Shown: positions 4,477-35,698 of the stretch, piece after piece
How positions within the stretch are numbered: position 1 is the first letter of the stretch
How the letters are laid out: every line of letters begins with the position of its first letter
Origin: a virus
Lineage: Duplodnaviria; Heunggongvirae; Uroviricota; Caudoviricetes
Direction: 5' to 3' (one strand)
Length of the DNA stretch: 38,179 nt
Virus record (IMG/VR): IMGVR_UViG_2585427736_000016
Translations under genes and position numbers: made by a program
Notes under the pieces: generated by a model
Databases searched by the model: none
Seen by the model: only the letters and a program-made list of their open reading frames with translations
What the model was told of the DNA's origin: nothing

Positions 4477-5081
4477 TAAGCAGCCGCTCCTTCTAATTCG
4501 TCTCGTCTGATGTTGTAAACGTCCTGCGCTTTGTGCTGCTCCGGTGTGCCTTCGAGCATCTTCCACGCTTTGGCGAACGCCTGTTTAAGCTCTTCTACGG
4601 TGTTTTTCTGCATTGCTGCGTCAGTGAATGCTTTTAGAACCTGTTCAGGTGTAGGTGATGGTTTTGATTGCTTTGCTGCTGCGTTCTGCTGATGTTTATG
4701 CTCGTTTGTATCTGCATCTTTCGCATCATCAATGCCGAGCAAACCATTGAGGCAATACTTGCGTGCATAAGAGCTTGTGGCTCCAGTAACTTGTGCAGAA
4801 TCCATTCCTTTCTTGCTTTCTTCCTCTCGTGCAAGAGCGGTTGCCGTATGACTGTTTTCGCCATCGGTAATAGTTGCCGTGGCTTTCACGTAATACCGAT
4901 CACCAATCAACACAACTTCATCGCTGATTGATAAAAACAGGCCATTCAGTAACGGCTTAACGCCTTCAAGAATGTCTTCGCAGCTTCTGTATTTATATTT
5001 ACCGAATGAGTTGTACTGATTCTTTGGCGCGTTCAGATTCTCCTGAATAGCTGCCAGTCTTGCGTAAAATTCTTTGCTCAT
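4476..5081 (-). CDS. erf: Erf-family single-strand annealing recombinase, about 201 aa
   Basis: Translation from MSKEFYARLAAIQENLNAPKNQYNSFGKYKYRSCEDILEGVKPLL... matches the P22 Erf N-terminus as recalled; track ORF starts 10 codons earlier at a TTG. Confidence 0.8.
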   Translation of the reverse strand: MSKEFYARLAAIQENLNAPKNQYNSFGKYKYRSCEDILEGVKPLLNGLFLSISDEVVLIGDRYYVKATATITDGENSHTATALAREEESKKGMDSAQVTGATSSYARKYCLNGLLGIDDAKDADTNEHKHQQNAAAKQSKPSPTPEQVLKAFTDAAMQKNTVEELKQAFAKAWKMLEGTPEQHKAQDVYNIRRDELEGAAA

Positions 5082-5091
5082 ATGATTGTTC

Positions 5092-5262
5092 TCAGAACGG
5101 ACACGGCCCAAGGAAATAACGCTGATTTAATACTTCAGTCTTTGCCGCATTTAAAAATACGCGAACACCTTCACGATCTCCCTTCTGGCGATACATTAAC
5201 GCCTGCTGCGTGTACATGCGTCTCTGTAACTTGCTCTCCTTCACTGTGGTTGCAAGTGACAT
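5092..5262 (-). CDS. small ORF in the arf position upstream of erf, 56 aa
   Basis: Hand-translated (MSLATTVKESKLQRRMYTQQALMYRQKGDREGVRVFLNAAKTEVLNQRYFLGPCPF), below the track size cutoff; AAGGAGAT SD 7 nt upstream of the ATG at 5262. Confidence 0.4.
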   Translation of the reverse strand: MSLATTVKESKLQRRMYTQQALMYRQKGDREGVRVFLNAAKTEVLNQRYFLGPCPF

Positions 5263-5341
5263 GAATATCTCCTTCGTTACCGATTAAATCTTTCATTTGA
5301 CGAATGAATTCTTCGTCTGACCAGTTATCTGTAAAACTCAT
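5171..5341 (-). CDS. small ORF in the kil position, 56 aa
   Basis: ATG at 5341 overlaps the cIII stop (ATGA); overlaps the arf-position ORF by 92 nt in another frame, so one of the two calls may be wrong. Confidence 0.35.
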   Translation of the reverse strand: MSFTDNWSDEEFIRQMKDLIGNEGDIHVTCNHSEGEQVTETHVHAAGVNVSPEGRS

Positions 5342-5508
5342 GGACGGCCTTGTTGTTTCAAAATATCCCAAAGCTTTTCGAGCAAACTTTTCATTCTTGG
5401 TTGTTTAAAGTCTGCTCCGGTTAAAATATTTTTTCGTGAATGCTGTACCGATAAAATCGGGTTGAAAGGGCGAACCGATGCCGCCCCTGCAATAGCGAAC
5501 TGTTGCAT
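5338..5508 (-). CDS. cIII: CIII-like regulator (FtsH/HflB protease inhibitor), 56 aa
   Basis: MQQFAIAGAASV...KSLLEKLWDILKQQGRP resembles lambda CIII (MQYAIAGWPVAG...ITRKLRDGWKRLIDILNQPG) as recalled; AAGGAG SD. Confidence 0.8.
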   Translation of the reverse strand: MQQFAIAGAASVRPFNPILSVQHSRKNILTGADFKQPRMKSLLEKLWDILKQQGRP

Positions 5509-5572
5509 AGGATGCTCCTTATATTTGATTGCATAACGAAAACGCCTCAAGTGAAGCGTTATTGGTATGCAT

Positions 5573-5598
5573 ATAAAAAAGCCCTCACACTGGAGGGC
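5573..5598 (-). terminator. rho-independent terminator in the PL operon upstream of cIII (tL-type)
   Basis: Minus-strand RNA GCCCUC-cagugu-GAGGGC followed by UUUUUU (plus A-run 5575-5580). Confidence 0.6.
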
Positions 5599-5734
5599 AA
5601 AGAAGATTTCCAATAATCAGAACAAGTCGGCTCCTGTTTGGTTACGAGCGACATTGCTCCGTGTATTCACTCGTTGGAATGAATACACAGTGCAGTGTTT
5701 ATTCTGTTGTTTATGCCAAAGATAAAGGCCACTA

Positions 5735-5832
5735 TCAGGCAGCTTTGTTGTTCTGTTTACCAAGTTCTCTGGCAATCATTGCCGCCGCTCGTATTGCCCA
5801 CACCATTGATTCTTATCAATAGTCGTAGTCAT
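5735..5832 (-). pseudogene. ral: ral (restriction alleviation) remnant broken by an internal out-of-frame deletion
   Basis: One frame gives MTTTIDKNQWCGQ then YERRQ-stop (5832..5776); the other frame on overlapping DNA gives ...WAIRAAAMIARELGKQNNKAA-stop (5806..5735). Both match the N- and C-terminal parts of lambda Ral as recalled. Confidence 0.5.
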
Positions 5833-5902
5833 ACGGATAGTCCTGGTATTGTTCCATCACATCCTGAGGATGCTCTTCGAACTCTTCAAATTCTTCTTCC
5901 AT
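5816..5902 (-). CDS. 28-aa highly acidic Tyr-rich micro-ORF
   Basis: Hand-translated MEEEFEEFEEHPQDVMEQYQDYPYDYDY; GAGGTG SD 6 nt upstream; ends in tandem stops TGA-TAA and shares its frame with the ral C-terminal fragment. Confidence 0.35.
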   Translation of the reverse strand: MEEEFEEFEEHPQDVMEQYQDYPYDYDY

Positions 5903-5956
5903 ATATCACCTCAAATAAGTTGTTTGCTGCGAAAGTAAATACGCTTAAGTTACCTG

Positions 5957-6094
5957 TTATTTATCCCACCAAGTTCCGTATCTATCTATCCAGTTACACC
6001 AATCATCGACACTCCATTTTGTTGTGTCGCATTTTGGCAACTGGCATGAATATCTACCTTCTTTGTAAAGTCGGCGTTTGACTTTCTTGAGCAT
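5957..6094 (-). CDS. hypothetical small Cys/Trp-rich protein, 45 aa
   Basis: Hand-translated MLKKVKRRLYKEGRYSCQLPKCDTTKWSVDDWCNWIDRYGTWWDK; GAGGTGAG SD; begins 8 nt after the N stop. Confidence 0.45.
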   Translation of the reverse strand: MLKKVKRRLYKEGRYSCQLPKCDTTKWSVDDWCNWIDRYGTWWDK

Positions 6095-6102
6095 GGCTCA
6101 CC

Positions 6103-6408
6103 TCAATCGTAATAAGCTGGAATTGATTTTCCGCGTTGCTTCTGGCGACCAACACAAGTCACACCCATTTCACTGCGTGGCTTGCTGTAGTAAATACGGT
6201 TCTGTTTACGTTCGACTTCTTCTGCCTTCTTGCAGCGAAGGCTTCCGAGTGATGCTGCTTTATCTGCTCTGACGCAACCAGAGAGCTTTAGCGCAATTTT
6301 TCGCGCCAGTCGCTGCTCTTGCATTGCCTGTTCACGTTGAGCCTGTCTGCGTGCTCTGCGGCGATTTCTGGCGTTATCGTCAGCCAGATATGTAATGACT
6401 ACTGTCAT
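6103..6408 (-). CDS. N: N-type transcription antiterminator, 101 aa
   Basis: Arginine-rich N-terminus (NARNRRRARRQAQREQ) and C-terminus ...RKQNRIYYSKPRSEMGVTCVGRQKQRGKSIP resembling lambda N (...RKNQRTWYSKPGERGITCSGRQKIKGKSIP) as recalled; GGAGG SD; first gene after PL and nutL. Confidence 0.75.
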   Translation of the reverse strand: MTVVITYLADDNARNRRRARRQAQREQAMQEQRLARKIALKLSGCVRADKAASLGSLRCKKAEEVERKQNRIYYSKPRSEMGVTCVGRQKQRGKSIPAYYD

Positions 6409-6720
6409 GTTGACCTCCGATGAAACAACTTTGGAATTGATAGTGATTGCAAAGTGGTTTCTGGCCCCTCGAACTGAGGGGCAGAAAGAGCATCTCGCCA
6501 CCTAATAGGTCGATGCTCGGATCGAGAGATTTAATTAACCTCGGTTTTGAAGTTATGCATTCACATAAATCCTCCTACCTCTTGTGCAGCTTTCTTGAAT
6601 ATGGTGGCGGCTGCATAACGCCTATGGAATTGACTTTGGCGGTGACGCGCCGGGTGCTTATCTTCCGGTTGCCGTCGTGCAGCTGCACTTCACGTCACCC
6701 CAAAGCCAACTACTCTTTGG

Positions 6721-6764
6721 TTCCCGCATTTCGGCGGGACAATCCCATCAATGTTAAAGAGCCT
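6721..6764 (-). promoter_or_regulatory. nutL (boxA GCTCTTTAAC plus boxB hairpin)
   Basis: Minus strand carries GGCTCTTTAAC then hairpin CCCGCCGAAATGCGGGAA; the same boxA 10-mer and an 18/18-identical boxB recur at nutR downstream of cro. Confidence 0.75.
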
Positions 6765-6804
6765 GCCAATCTGTTCCGTTTGGCTACCAGCGTCCTGCTG
6801 ATGG

Positions 6805-6900
6805 CTAAAGAGTACTGTAGGTATTTTATTGTGTAAATACCCAAGGTATTTATTTTTGGTGAAATAATGATAAGCAAATGAATACAAAGGATATTTATTT
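6805..6900 (-). promoter_or_regulatory. OL operators and PL promoter region
   Basis: Three 15-bp dyads of type A(A/G)TAC-N5-GTATT (AGTACtgtagGTATT, AAATACccaagGTATTT, GAATACaaaggATATT) matching the two OR dyads; candidate -35 TTTACA and -10 about 17 bp downstream on the minus strand. Confidence 0.5.
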
Positions 6901-6982
6901 TTTTCGGTGTCTGCTTGTTCAGTGCTTTTTATGCGGGATATGTGAAGTGGATCCCGATAGCTATTGCTGCCGGGATTATGGG

Positions 6983-7351
6983 TTAGTCAGCGAAGGTTAA
7001 GACGAGAATTACCTTAATGATGTCTGCTACAACAGACACGGCCATAGATAAACCAAAGACGATCCAAGCCATAGAGATGTCTTCACTACCATCGTATAGG
7101 GTTCCGTAATCACTGGTGTAAGGCGTAAATGTCGCGCCTTGATACAATAGGTATAAGCTTGATCCATAGAGGATAAATGCAGATATCCCTTGTATTGCTA
7201 TGATCACCAGAATCATGAAACGAGCTGATCTATGCGCCCAAGCCTGGCTTATTTTTTCTGATAGAGTTTTCGCAATAAAAGCATGCGATAAGCCGTAAAT
7301 TGTCGAGATTGCCAACATCCCAAAAAAGCTTGCTATAGCGGTTCCAACCAT
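6983..7351 (-). CDS. three-TM membrane protein cotranscribed downstream of the repressor (rexAB / sieB-position accessory gene), 122 aa
   Basis: Track ORF trimmed to the ATG at 7351 with AAGGGG SD, 18 nt after the repressor stop; three hydrophobic helices (VGTAIASFFGMLAISTIYGL, FMILVIIAIQGISAFILYGSSLYLLY, MAWIVFGLSMAVSVVADIIKVILVLTF); no recognisable family. Confidence 0.6.
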   Translation of the reverse strand: MVGTAIASFFGMLAISTIYGLSHAFIAKTLSEKISQAWAHRSARFMILVIIAIQGISAFILYGSSLYLLYQGATFTPYTSDYGTLYDGSEDISMAWIVFGLSMAVSVVADIIKVILVLTFAD

Positions 7352-7368
7352 AAGCGCCCCTTGCGTGA

Positions 7369-8085
7369 TCAAACCAGCCTTAGTTTTGTCTCAATTGCAA
7401 CGCCTATAATCTTGCAGTTTCCATTGATTGGCACGAGAGGCCATGCAGGGTTAAGTCCCTTGAGGTATTTATTTCCGCCGTCGATTATCAGCTTCTTGAA
7501 TGTTGCTTCGTTAGAGTCAGAAAGTTTTGCTATGACCAAGCTGCCGTTGATCGCCTCCCTTCCGGTATCGAAAAGAACGAATGTTCCCTCTGGAATGCTT
7601 AACCCAACCGGTGCCGTCATTGAATCACCTTCCACTTTAAGCCAAAACGCATTACCTTGAATATGCGCGTCAGACTCAAGCCAAACATCTATGTCTTTAA
7701 TGGTGTATGGTTCGCATGCTTCACACCACGAGCCAGCCTGGATACTGCTTAACACCGGATACCTCTTTCCTGCTCTGTATTCCCCTGCATACCTTACGTT
7801 GGCATCGCTCTTAAGGCTTTCTGCCTGTTCTGCAACCTTGGCAGCAATTGACTGGCTAAAATCAGCAATTGAGACTTGCAACAATCGTGCAAAACCAGAT
7901 GCAACCTCAACGTTTAGCGCGTTTCTGCCATTAAGATAATGTCCTACCGCTCCTTGGGTGATACCCAGTTCATCAGCGATTGAGTATTGGGTTATTCCCA
8001 ATTCTTTCTTTTTTGACTCATACAAAGCCTTAAGCCGCTTAGCGTCTTCGAGCTGTTCTGTCGTCAGTGATTTTTTATTTTCCAT
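7369..8085 (-). CDS. cI: CI/C2-type prophage repressor (HTH plus LexA-like S24 autopeptidase domain), 238 aa
   Basis: C-terminal half (...WLKVEGDSMTAPVGLSIPEGTFVLFD...ATFKKLIIDGGNKYLKGLNPAWPLVPINGNCKIIGVAIE) closely resembles the P22 C2 cleavage/dimerisation domain as recalled; N-terminal HTH (ITQYSIADELGITQGAVGHY); ATG lacks an SD, consistent with leaderless PRM mRNA. Confidence 0.9.
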   Translation of the reverse strand: MENKKSLTTEQLEDAKRLKALYESKKKELGITQYSIADELGITQGAVGHYLNGRNALNVEVASGFARLLQVSIADFSQSIAAKVAEQAESLKSDANVRYAGEYRAGKRYPVLSSIQAGSWCEACEPYTIKDIDVWLESDAHIQGNAFWLKVEGDSMTAPVGLSIPEGTFVLFDTGREAINGSLVIAKLSDSNEATFKKLIIDGGNKYLKGLNPAWPLVPINGNCKIIGVAIETKLRLV

Positions 8086-8091
8086 AGCTTA

Positions 8092-8165
8092 ATTCTAATA
8101 GCTAAGGTACTTAAACTAAAAATACCCTGAGTATTGATTGCTTTGAATACCTGTAGTATTCTTTG
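8092..8165. promoter_or_regulatory. OR operators with divergent PRM and PR
   Basis: Dyads AATACcctgaGTATT (8121-8135) and AATACctgtaGTATT (8146-8160) plus a weaker AATAGctaagGTACT (8097-8111); PRM -10 TAGAAT at 8092-8097, 6 nt before the cI ATG; PR candidate -35 TTGATT (8134-8139) and -10 TATTCT (8157-8162). Confidence 0.55.
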
Positions 8166-8191
8166 TTCATGGTTAATAACGGAGAGTGCAT

Positions 8192-8386
8192 ATGATTCGA
8201 ATGACACTTGCCGATTACGCCAAAATCCATGGACAGGCTAAAGCAGCCAGTGACTTTGGTGTAATCCAGTGCGCTATCAGCAAGGCCATTCTGGCAGGCC
8301 GTAACATCATGGTTACGGTAAAGCCTGATGGCAGTGTGATTGGAGAGGAAGTTCGTCCTTTCCCAAGCAACAAGAAAAACAAATAG
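8192..8386 (+). CDS. cro: Cro repressor, 64 aa
   Basis: [62 protein letters not shown] resembles lambda Cro ([63 protein letters not shown]) as recalled; GGAGAG SD. Confidence 0.85.
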
Positions 8387-8402
8387 TAACACCGCTCTTT
8401 AA

Positions 8403-8447
8403 CAGTCATGGTCATCATTCCCGCCGAAATGCGGGAATACAACGCGC
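8403..8447 (+). promoter_or_regulatory. nutR (boxA CGCTCTTTAAC plus boxB hairpin)
   Basis: boxA 8403-8413, boxB TTCCCGC-cgaaat-GCGGGAA 8428-8447; matches nutL. Confidence 0.75.
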
Positions 8448-8494
8448 ATAATTTGATGCGCATAACTTCTTATTTGTTAAGGAAATACTTACAT

Positions 8495-8773
8495 ATGCAA
8501 CTTACAAGTACTCGCAAGAAAGCGAATGCAATTACAAGCAACATCCTGAATCGAATTGCTGTACGTGGTCAGCGAAAGGTTGCCGACGCGTTAGGGATTA
8601 ATGAATCGCAAATTTCGCGATGGAAAGATAGCTTCATCCCCAAAATGGGAATGCTTCTGGCTGTTCTTGAATGGGGTGTTGAAGACGAGGAGTTGGCGGA
8701 ACTGGCTAAGAAAGTAGCCAGAATGCTGACAAAAGAAAAAGCCCCGAAGAACGGCGAATTCTTCGAGGCCTGA
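8495..8773 (+). CDS. cII: CII transcriptional activator, 92 aa
   Basis: ...GINESQISRWKDSFIPKMGMLLAVLEWGVEDEELAELAKKVARML resembles lambda CII (...VDKSQISRWKRDWIPKFSMLLAVLEWGVVDDDMARLARQVAAIL) as recalled; AAGGAAA SD. Confidence 0.85.
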   Translation: MQLTSTRKKANAITSNILNRIAVRGQRKVADALGINESQISRWKDSFIPKMGMLLAVLEWGVEDEELAELAKKVARMLTKEKAPKNGEFFEA

Positions 8774-33880: not shown

Positions 33881-35698
33881 ATGTCAGATATCACCGCAAA
33901 TGTTGTGGTAAGCATGCCTTCTCAACTCTTCACTATGGCTCGTTCTTTTAAAGCCGTAGCTAATGGAAAGATTTATATCGGAAAAATTGACACTGATCCG
34001 GTAAATACTGAAAACCAGATCCAGGTTTATGTGGAGAACGAAGACGGCTCTCATGTTCCTGTATCGCAACCAATCATCATTAACGCTGCTGGTTACCCGG
34101 TATATAACGGACAGATCGCCAAGTTCGTAACTGTGCAAGGCCATTCTATGGCTGTTTATGATGCATATGGGGCGCAGCAGTTCTATTTTCCTAATGTGTT
34201 GAAGTACGACCCTGACCAGGGAATTATCAGGTTAAAAGAAGAAATTGCGAAAGATGATGGAGAGAAATATATCGGAATATGCCCTGACGTTTTTACGCTC
34301 AGAACAATTGAGCCATCATTCGTCGGGCAAAATATAACTGTTCGTGGATACTACTCTGACACACCCGGGCTTGGGGGAGGAACGTTTATAGCCTTTTCCA
34401 GTTCTGAAGCTGACGATGGTGTGAATATTTTTGTTACCCCCGGCGGTAAGCGATGGAAGAGAGCAGGAAGCCACATCGATATTCCGGTAGAGAACGGTGG
34501 CATGATGACATCATGTACGGCTGAGCAAAACAGTGAAGCCTTTGAACGCCTGACTGCATGCCTTCCATATGAAGGAGGTACGCTCAGACTCAATGGATTT
34601 TACGATATTAAGTATGGCGCTATCGTGCCTCCACGTGTCACGCTGGAGGGGTGCGGTATGGATTCCTGTGGATTAATTAAAACAGGTAACGATATTAAAA
34701 CCGTTCCGGATCGCATGTGGCAGGGTGTACCACACAGCTTCTCCAAAGACTTTATTGTTGCGGTAGATATGGATAGTGACACATCAGGTGATTTAAGCGG
34801 GACACAAACAAGAAGCACCAGAATAATTGGATTGAGTATTCTAAATACTGCGCCCAATCCTTGTGATTACGGGATATATAGCGCTATCAGTTACAATGTG
34901 CGCCTTCAGGACCTGTATATTCATAGGGTGAAAACCGGTTATCGCACTAGTGATAGTTGGTTGCAGACATGGGAAAACATTACTATTCAGGATGTCGTTA
35001 CTGGAGTTAAAATCGAAGCAGGTGGAACCACATATAATTTAAACAATATTTATGTGAAAACATGTTCAGGTGTTGCATATGATTTTAATAACATTACATA
35101 TAGCAGCCTGACTTGTTTGGCTGCTGACTTCGTTAATGGTACTGGCTATAAATTTAAAGATTGTACTGGAGTGAATCTATCTGGATGCGGAAGCGAAGAA
35201 AGCACTGGTAAAATATTTGATATAAATGGTAGTCGAATTAACGTAACTGCATTTAGAGGGGTTAATCATCATGATGGAGGAGTTGAAGCTGTATCTCTGG
35301 AATCGTGTTTCATCTCATTGGTTTCATCTCATTTTTCTAGTTACTCTGGAGGCTCATCTAGCAAATACATATATCTTAATGATGCAACTGCAAATTTTAA
35401 TGGTACGGTAATTCCCGACAACACCACTGATTCTATTAGATGGGGTAGTGGGCAGAGCAGGATCAACAAGGTTGATTCAGGCGGCACCTATAGTATAACC
35501 GGAAACTCATCATGGACTGCATTATGCAGACTTGAGTCAGGATATATAACGGTTCTATCAGTATCACCACCCACGGGAGATACAACTAATTTCCCGTTTG
35601 GCACCAAGTGGGAATTGCTTGGTCAGGTTTCTACCGGACCGTGGAAGTGGACATACGTATCAACTGGTGAATGGAAGGTATCCGCAACTACCACGTAA
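33881..35698 (+). CDS. tailspike protein (conserved P22-type head-binding domain plus distinct beta-helix receptor-binding domain), 605 aa
   Basis: First about 113 aa ([42 protein letters not shown]...NVLKYDPDQ) match the P22/Sf6 N-terminal domain as recalled; remainder is Gly/Asn/Thr/Ser-rich repeats in AT-rich DNA. Confidence 0.9.

Follow-up and report, generated by a model that had tools for sequence, protein, structure and literature searches.

An orf28 orthologue and a deletion-bearing ral remnant in the early-left operon of an HK620/P22-like phage

The orf28-ral segment of the window

The DNA examined here is a 38,179-nucleotide (nt) viral sequence (IMG/VR record IMGVR_UViG_2585427736_000016), the whole of which is called the window below. 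At positions 5735 to 5902, an earlier note made from the sequence letters had placed a remnant of ral, the restriction-alleviation gene of phage lambda, next to a strongly acidic 28-codon open reading frame (ORF). The whole window is a mosaic lambdoid phage, with HK620 and other P22-like phages as its nearest relatives, and the region in question is the orf28-ral segment of its early-left (pL) operon. The features found there, which include every element of the note's description at the positions it gave and which all lie on the minus strand, are collected in Table 1. The best explanation of the locus is that it holds a deletion allele of ral and an intact orf28 gene within the pL operon, and we put the probability of this explanation as a whole at about 85%.

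The product of the acidic ORF shows 100% amino-acid identity to the lambda orf28 protein (lambdap47, NP_040623), and it matches PHROG 16060, a family of unknown function, over positions 1-28 of 28 (E 7e-19). Judged by this identity, the ORF is lambda orf28, a gene that is already known and uncharacterised and that the earlier note did not recognise; in the lambda annotation (NC_001416), it is listed as a 'hypothetical protein' at 34271..34357, with ral (66 aa) at 34087..34287. The peptide contains 12 Asp or Glu among its 28 residues, 5 Tyr, 2 Phe, and no Lys or Arg, and its computed charge is about -12.4 at pH 7, with an isoelectric point of about 4. The Shine-Dalgarno sequence that the earlier note had called good is GAGGTGA, and a counterpart is retained in loci from Providencia, Kluyvera, and Erwinia. 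The 3' end of orf28 overlaps the ATG of ral by 17 nt, as in lambda, so that the ribosome-binding site of ral, CAGGA, falls inside orf28. Thus lambda and the window share the same protein, ribosome-binding site, length, and ral overlap, and the gene itself does not differ between them; what differs is its surroundings, because in the window the downstream ral is dead and a DUF5484 gene stands upstream in place of the lambda sieB gene. Pfam and NCBIfam searches gave no model that matches orf28, and a PDB sequence search at E <= 10 returned no match to orf28 and none to Ral.

The Pfam Ral model (PF11058) matched the window only in two pieces, one from each end of the model and in different frames, instead of one continuous ORF of about 59-69 aa matching end to end, and the description of ral as a frame-broken remnant was thereby confirmed. 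The N-terminal stub starts at an ATG at 5832 and comprises 13 Ral codons and 5 out-of-frame codons before its stop (18 codons in total). The C-terminal piece, a 23-codon ATG ORF, lies in the frame of orf28, with TGA TAA GAA TCA standing between the two, exactly the in-frame arrangement with tandem stops that had been noted; a read-through fusion of orf28 with this piece was rejected because the tandem TGA TAA stops intervene. All full-length relatives keep the four Cys of the conserved Ral cluster W-C-x5-C-x2-C-x5-C, whereas the window retains C11 only, C17, C20, and C26 being gone. Like lambda ral, the remnant lies in the early-left operon downstream of N, with the same overlap with orf28, recognisable first 13 and last 21 codons (RAAAM where lambda Ral has RTTAM), and nearly identical downstream DNA. 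In contrast to lambda ral, it lacks 103 nt, which breaks its frame and takes away three of the four conserved Cys; no Ral protein can be made from it. A phmmer search over the window found no other Ral ORF and no ORF of Lar, a second family of restriction-alleviation proteins.

Table 1. Coordinates of the orf28-ral segment and its neighbouring features in the window
Feature	Position	Strand	Basis
orf28 orthologue, 28-codon acidic/aromatic micro-protein gene, intact; MEEEFEEFEEHPQDVMEQYQDYPYDYDY	5816..5902	-	lambda identity; PHROG 16060
Shine-Dalgarno sequence of orf28, GAGGTGA	5906..5912	-	direct reading; 4 nt ahead of ATG
ral N-terminal stub; MTTTIDKNQWCGQYERRQ, then stop	5776..5832	-	alignment to lambda ral; Pfam Ral positions 1-16
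Out-of-frame C-terminal ral piece, 23-codon ATG ORF; MVWAIRAAAMIARELGKQNNKAA	5735..5806	-	Pfam Ral positions 46-66, E 1e-8
Deletion junction, one surviving hybrid repeat copy; TGGGCAATACGAGCG	5786..5800	-	lambda alignment
Intrinsic-terminator-like hairpin downstream of ral remnant; GCCCTCCAGTGTGAGGGC then TTTTTT	5581..5598	-	sequence
Second terminator-like hairpin	5541..5560	-	sequence
DUF5484 ORF, 45 aa	5957..6094	-	Pfam PF17583, 46.7 bits; PHROG 1871; SfI annotation
N-like antiterminator, first pL-operon gene	6103..6501	-	PHROG 271, E 1e-37; arginine-rich motif NARNRRRARRQ

The pairwise alignment of the window region to positions 33950-34420 of lambda NC_001416 contained a single clean gap of 103 nt inside ral, which opens after ...CAATGGTG and closes before TGGGCAATACGA. 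Apart from this gap, the alignment was near-perfect from the ribosome-binding site of orf28 to about 130 nt past ral; upstream of that site the window diverges from lambda, and the mean column identity over the full alignment was 85%. The similarity is not due to chance, because megablast with the 361-nt query gave an E-value of 1e-92. The earlier note had proposed an internal deletion of about 100 nt between short TGG repeats, which agrees well with what was found, the TGG triplets being the opening 3 nt of a 15-nt direct repeat that is imperfect. In lambda ral, one copy, TGGACAATTCAAGCG, starts at nt 33 and the other, TGGGCAATACGAACG, at nt 136, a spacing of exactly 103 nt, and the two agree at 11/15 positions (12/15 when the C-side variant of the window is used). 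Because 103 is not divisible by three, the frame breaks after Ral codon 13 and leaves the C-terminal 21 codons out of frame. The alignment therefore indicates that ral is inactivated by a 103-bp deletion whose ends lie in the two copies of an imperfect 15-bp direct repeat. The deletion was probably produced by replication slippage or by short-homology recombination between the copies.

Frequency, origin, and decay of the ral deletion allele

To count the allele, a 51-nt query spanning the deletion junction was used at E <= 1e-7, a threshold meant to bar full-length matches to the intact allele. Full-length matches to this deletion-specific 51-mer were found in 101/5,426 complete E. coli genomes, and matches to the corresponding intact-junction 51-mer in 790/5,426; approximately 11% of the lambda-type ral copies in these genomes thus carry the deletion. 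In spot checks, the full-length matches were deletion alleles, which the PGAP annotation labels as 'frameshifted' or as a 23-aa coding sequence, whereas a match with 76% coverage was an intact ral of 201 nt. A scan of IMG/VR for an orf28 word yielded at least 120 loci, and among 125 copies (the IMG/VR matches listed together with the reference loci), 13 carried the 18-codon stub. The phage records E212 and ECP1 matched the 361-nt query in one piece, and their alignment contained the same 103-nt gap. Short repeats can in general collapse during assembly, and the gap could on that account be an artefact of sequencing or assembly; since two phages sequenced independently, several metagenomic contigs, and 101 complete E. 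coli genomes all have the identical gap, the chance of this is negligible. Among lambdoid phages and the prophages of E. coli, the 103-nt deletion is thus a natural allele that is frequently met. The ral remnant is thus an ordinary pseudogene allele, already annotated elsewhere as a frameshifted Ral gene in RefSeq, a widespread polymorphism that the earlier note had not recognised. Since both this allele and orf28 are already annotated elsewhere, the finding itself is an ordinary one; what is new is modest, namely that the deletion is bounded by a repeat, is apparently recurrent, and has a frequency of about 11%.

Other broken or shortened ral alleles were also seen. An allele with a stop at Lys60, which leaves a Ral of 59 aa, makes up about 15% of lambda-type copies and includes that of phage SfI. 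One IMG/VR locus (L072) has a nonsense allele in which Gly19 is changed to a stop (GGA to TGA), leaving 18 codons, and a Kluyvera locus (L147) has a frameshift in ral near the C-side repeat.

When 18 deletion alleles were compared, they fell into three junction classes on two common downstream haplotypes. In 11 alleles, including that of the window, the surviving repeat reads TGGGCAAT...; in six it reads TGGACAATACGA..., one of these reading TAGACAAT; and in one, that of E212, TGGACAATTCAAGCG is joined to GCGG. The retained copy is the N-side one in E212 and the C-side one in the window and in ECP1. Every deviation from the commonest junction form agrees with the N-side copy, as expected if the crossover points within the repeat differed. 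These patterns suggest that recombination or slippage produced the deletion independently at least twice, and probably three times. On the other side, the longest perfect runs within the repeat are just 3-4 nt, and for this reason a single old deletion, followed by recombination or conversion against intact alleles, may be the source of some of the junction variants. The repeat within ral appears to be prone to deletion, and about one in ten lambda-type copies has lost the gene in this way.

The C-terminal remnant gathers mutations, which argues that it is a pseudogene. Its 21 codons were identical to those of lambda in 1/17 deletion alleles, compared with 60/103 intact alleles (Fisher p = 4e-5, a value that is only indicative because the samples are phylogenetically non-independent, although the direction is clear), and variants with Trp or Lys changed to a stop occurred among the remnants of deletion alleles. 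By contrast, the frequency of the allele, about one in nine lambda-type copies, might be explained if the 23-codon ORF (MVWAIR...KAA) were translated by re-initiation into a functional short form of Ral. Its ATG lies 9 nt past the orf28 stop in the same frame, and several RefSeq genomes carry a PGAP-predicted 23-aa 'antirestriction Ral family protein'. Such a protein is very unlikely to be functional: the remnant differs from lambda in 16/17 deletion alleles against 43/103 intact ones, with stops among the changes, the entire conserved Cys cluster is absent, and the ORF has no ribosome-binding site of its own. On these comparisons, the C-terminal remnant is best regarded as a pseudogene fragment. 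In three E. coli genomes in RefSeq (loci L158, L159, and L161), the remnant is annotated as the 23-aa 'antirestriction Ral family protein' (WP_106425302.1, WP_231793225.1, and WP_353654437.1), and orf28 is left unannotated; these protein entries are most likely pseudogene fragments as well.

Ral accelerates the methylation of the first strand by type IA enzymes by way of HsdM's N-terminal domain (PMC12707154), and a knock-down of ral has consequences only where the host carries an active type I system (PMC10695390). In the phage of the window, no Ral would be made, and unmodified progeny would be deprived of the de novo methylation that Ral stimulates in type IA systems (EcoKI/EcoBI) and would be restricted more strongly. 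The phage should therefore behave as a ral-minus phage. The remnant therefore carries little weight beyond annotation, other than predicting a greater sensitivity of the phage to EcoKI-type restriction.

Conservation and gene neighbours of orf28

To avoid selecting on orf28 itself, loci were gathered through the Ral protein, with Ral sequences 61-79% identical to that of lambda; Ral was confined to Enterobacterales. An acidic ORF overlapping the start of ral was present in 9/14 of these Ral-anchored loci from other genera, encoding peptides of 22-28 aa with the core F[DE]EHPxD[DV]MxQYQDYPY[DE]. The peptides encoded upstream of ral were MEEEFEEFEEHPQDVMEQYQDYPYEYDY in Cronobacter, MEEDIEEFDEHPDDDMRQYQDYPYEYDY in Providencia, (M/V)EDDIEEFDEHPDDDMSQYQDYPYEHDY at two Proteus loci (one with a GTG start), MDEEEFDEHPADDMSQYQDYPYEFDY in Pantoea, MEEFDQHPDDDMSQYQDYRYEY in Erwinia, and EDEFDEHPDDDMSRYQDYPYDH in Kluyvera (GTG start), and two further contigs had 28-aa peptides of the same type. 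The gene is missing from 5/14 Ral loci. In a Citrobacter-type group of three loci, an unrelated 66-aa ORF takes its place; at a Salmonella locus (L199), orf28 is internally deleted and ral is intact; and at a Kluyvera georgiana locus (L200), orf28 has lost its body to a deletion, and its ribosome-binding site and start are joined to ral.

Over the 16 orf28 codons outside the ral overlap, the pooled ratio of non-synonymous to synonymous polymorphism (pN/pS) in the Ral-anchored set was about 0.15. The Proteus and Pantoea genes, for example, differ by seven synonymous changes and one non-synonymous change, and the non-synonymous changes in this set are mostly exchanges between Glu and Asp. A wider tally over all collected peptides showed 14/15 third positions to be variable and all four proline codons to be in use; we discounted it because many of those sequences had been picked on the motif itself, and the Ral-anchored set serves as the unbiased test. 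These codon patterns indicate that orf28 is a genuine micro-gene that codes for protein and is kept under purifying selection, and it has a strong ribosome-binding site of its own. For the translation of the peptide during infection, this selection at the codon level is indirect support. The suggestion in the earlier note that the acidic ORF could equally be non-functional debris is thus rejected, since it is conserved across genera under such selection. The codon-level evidence for orf28 as a selected gene is a modest new result.

The same Ral search in species-representative genomes of GTDB mostly returned contaminating lambda DNA. In about 20 assemblies of unrelated taxa (numbered between L125 and L148 in our collection), including Pseudoxanthomonas, Nocardioides, Shewanella, Paenibacillus, Bradyrhizobium, and Enterococcus, Ral was 100% identical to that of lambda and lay on contigs of low coverage. 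These copies almost certainly come from contamination with lambda control or cloning DNA.

Relatives of orf28 at loci without ral were sought by tblastn against phages and by two motif scans. The low-complexity filter of tblastn masked the lambda-type copies, while fused forms from Klebsiella and Brenneria were still detected. These relatives occurred in three settings. In the first, the peptide gene directly follows, and overlaps, a 77-aa Cys-rich ORF, with a terminator immediately downstream and no ral. This ORF belongs to the Lar family (Pfam PF14354, 36.6 bits against a cut-off of 28.6; PHROG 599), which is named after Lar of the Rac prophage and is of the same functional class as Ral, but is unrelated in sequence to both Ral and orf28. 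Lar probably corresponds to the RalR protein of that prophage, an identity that the text of the RalR paper did not confirm. The arrangement of Lar and peptide was found in two divergent Lar lineages. In one of them, the Lar-family gene is followed by a 28-aa acidic peptide, (M/V)SVGEDEFEEHPDDDMSQYQDYPFDYDY, and an intrinsic terminator (GGCTGCCTAACCCGCAGCC then a T-run), again without ral, and the peptide and terminator look like a unit; the order Lar, peptide, terminator was seen at L165, L168, L169, L174, L176, L183, L185, L186, L188, and L205-L216.

In the second setting, the peptide is solitary, downstream of an N-like gene and directly before a terminator. In the third, the orf28 core HPxD[DE]MSQYQDY... 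makes up roughly the final 20 residues of small early proteins that are larger and otherwise unrelated. Klebsiella phage vB_KpnP_XY3 (PV296009, 1735..1905; L162) encodes one of these, which is rich in Cys and 56 aa long and has relatives at L193, L211, and L217; Brenneria phage BREN6 (PQ031257, 20728..20973; L163) encodes the other, of 81 aa. At L193, L211, and L217, the 56-aa gene comes directly after a second, divergent Lar-like ORF, which it overlaps by 4 nt; the ORF upstream of the 56-aa gene in XY3 itself had no family match. Wider motif scans of IMG/VR and JGI metagenomes gave chance matches or duplicates and no further fusion partners.

Among 172 orf28-type copies, which are a non-independent sample, a Ral ORF lay downstream in 134, and the ral deletion remnant lay beside about 20. 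Lar was found just upstream in 10 copies, an eleventh case being the fused L193 protein with its preceding Lar-like ORF, and the remaining copies were solitary, fused, or at contig edges. The most frequent neighbours of the peptide are therefore Ral and Lar, two unrelated families with the same reported function, and this association of orf28 with both, fused forms included, is likewise new, if modest.

A possible role for orf28 and its operon setting

In the phage of the window, orf28 would still be transcribed from pL and translated to a 3.7-kDa peptide with a charge of -12, and this peptide would act independently of Ral. Because orf28 repeatedly adjoins Ral or Lar genes, it may help the phage to evade or tune type I restriction, perhaps through charge or by mimicking DNA when it binds to a basic, DNA-binding surface; we offer this, the weakest step of the reading, tentatively, since the suggestion comes from gene neighbourhood only. 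In more general terms, the orf28 family (F[DE]EHPxD[DE]MSQYQDYPY[DE]YDY), which occurs as a free peptide of 22-30 residues coupled with Ral or Lar, as a solitary gene ahead of a terminator, or as a C-terminal tail on other small early proteins, could possibly be an unrecognised, portable acidic module with which lambdoid phages evade or tune type I restriction, although we would not call this probable. If it were true, the phage would keep half of a two-part anti-restriction cassette despite its dead ral. The gene has been annotated for about 40 years without a known function, and a literature search found none given for it, so that its neighbours provide a concrete hypothesis for a gene of the best-studied phage.

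T7 Ocr and ArdA act against type I restriction enzymes (PMC12373910; PMC2731889). Like these DNA mimics, orf28 is strongly acidic and early-encoded, and its peptide has a high density of negative charge. However, Ocr and ArdA are folded, DNA-shaped proteins of more than 100 residues, whereas orf28 has 28 residues, and PDB, Pfam, and NCBIfam searches revealed no relation in sequence or fold to a known mimic. The DNA-mimic or decoy reading raised in the earlier note would fit both the charge of -12 and the genes that lie beside orf28. A precedent for a tiny peptide acting against a type I enzyme is T4 Stp, a phage peptide of 26 residues and an inhibitor of the type IC enzyme EcoprrI. It differs from orf28 in not being acidic and does not resemble it in sequence, and the comparison is a functional speculation.

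Several observations weigh against an autonomous role of orf28 in restriction. The association with Lar is thin, being found in two lineages, and several copies lack both Ral and Lar in their vicinity; what the copies have in common may simply be the position of an early gene just after N. The literature search found no expression or peptide data for orf28. Knock-down of lambda orf28 by CRISPR interference caused no plaque defect (PMC10695390), and lambda strains from which orf28-ral has been removed are viable (PMC2327257). When Ral is expressed by itself as an accessory gene, the counter-defence phenotype is already obtained (PMC12373910), and Ral activity does not therefore require orf28. 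Furthermore, variants or breaks of orf28 were found in 9/17 ral-deleted alleles against 6/103 intact alleles (p = 8e-6), an enrichment that is confounded by shared ancestry, by samples partly picked on orf28, and by the position of several changes within the ral overlap. The usefulness of orf28 could thus depend on ral, arguing against its autonomy.

This enrichment also bears on two other explanations of the acidic gene. If orf28 were a mere upstream leader, whose translation brings ribosomes to the start of ral and whose peptide has no function, its decay after the loss of ral would be expected, as would the 17-nt overlap with the ral ATG, retained in most Ral loci, and the position of the ral ribosome-binding site within orf28. 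We consider such a leader unlikely, because selection acts on the amino-acid sequence (pN/pS of about 0.15, with conservative Glu/Asp exchanges) and Ral genes without orf28 exist (L199, L200, and the Citrobacter type). The peptide also persists without ral, whether beside Lar, solitary, or as a fused tail, and is therefore not merely a ral leader. The peptide might instead neutralise or regulate the small, basic, zinc-finger-like Ral or Lar proteins themselves, in the manner of an antitoxin or chaperone, and not act on a host enzyme. Its gene is the direct neighbour of the Ral gene (downstream) or the Lar gene (upstream) and is coupled to it in translation, its variants are enriched once ral is dead, and RalR of the Rac prophage is a toxic DNase held in check by an antitoxin (PMC4041452). 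This, too, seems rather unlikely, given that solitary copies of the peptide have neither Ral nor Lar nearby and that Ral functions when expressed alone. The reading we prefer, at the tentative level stated above, is a contribution of orf28 to evading or modulating type I restriction.

On the minus strand of the window, the order of genes is an N-like gene, the DUF5484 ORF, orf28, the ral remnant, the terminator-like hairpins, and a cIII-like gene, followed by a small ORF whose PHROG match bears the family label 'recombinase', then an Erf-family recombinase, and a single-stranded DNA-binding protein (SSB). The N-like ORF as called mechanically has a GTG start and encodes 132 aa; judging from the arginine-rich motif and from relatives, its true start is probably an internal ATG near 6408 (MTVVITYLADDNARNRRRARRQ...). 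The DUF5484 ORF, between N and orf28, is rich in Trp and Cys, resembles gene 36 of Sf6, and stands where lambda carries sieB, which in lambda lies on the other strand. The plus-strand ORFs across the region (5695-6081, 5661-5822, and 5567-5725) had no PHROG match, and none of them is credible as a gene. A plus-strand ORF of 128 aa was rejected as a gene; it is broken in lambda, and is open in the window because the 103-nt deletion fuses two antisense frames.

The DNA from ral to the hairpin at 5581..5598 is nearly identical in lambda, SfI, E212, and ECP1. An Rfam scan of positions 4500-8500 at E <= 1 gave one meaningless match to a eukaryotic scaRNA and no RNA family that accounts for this conserved DNA downstream of ral. 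Across lambda, SfI, E212, ECP1, and the window, the conservation of the non-coding stretch 5600..5735 (minus strand) exceeds that of ral, and the stretch may belong to the tL2 terminator cluster of lambda. Within it, at about 5661..5688 (minus strand), lies a hairpin, GTGTATTCA...TGAATACAC, with a perfect 9-bp stem.

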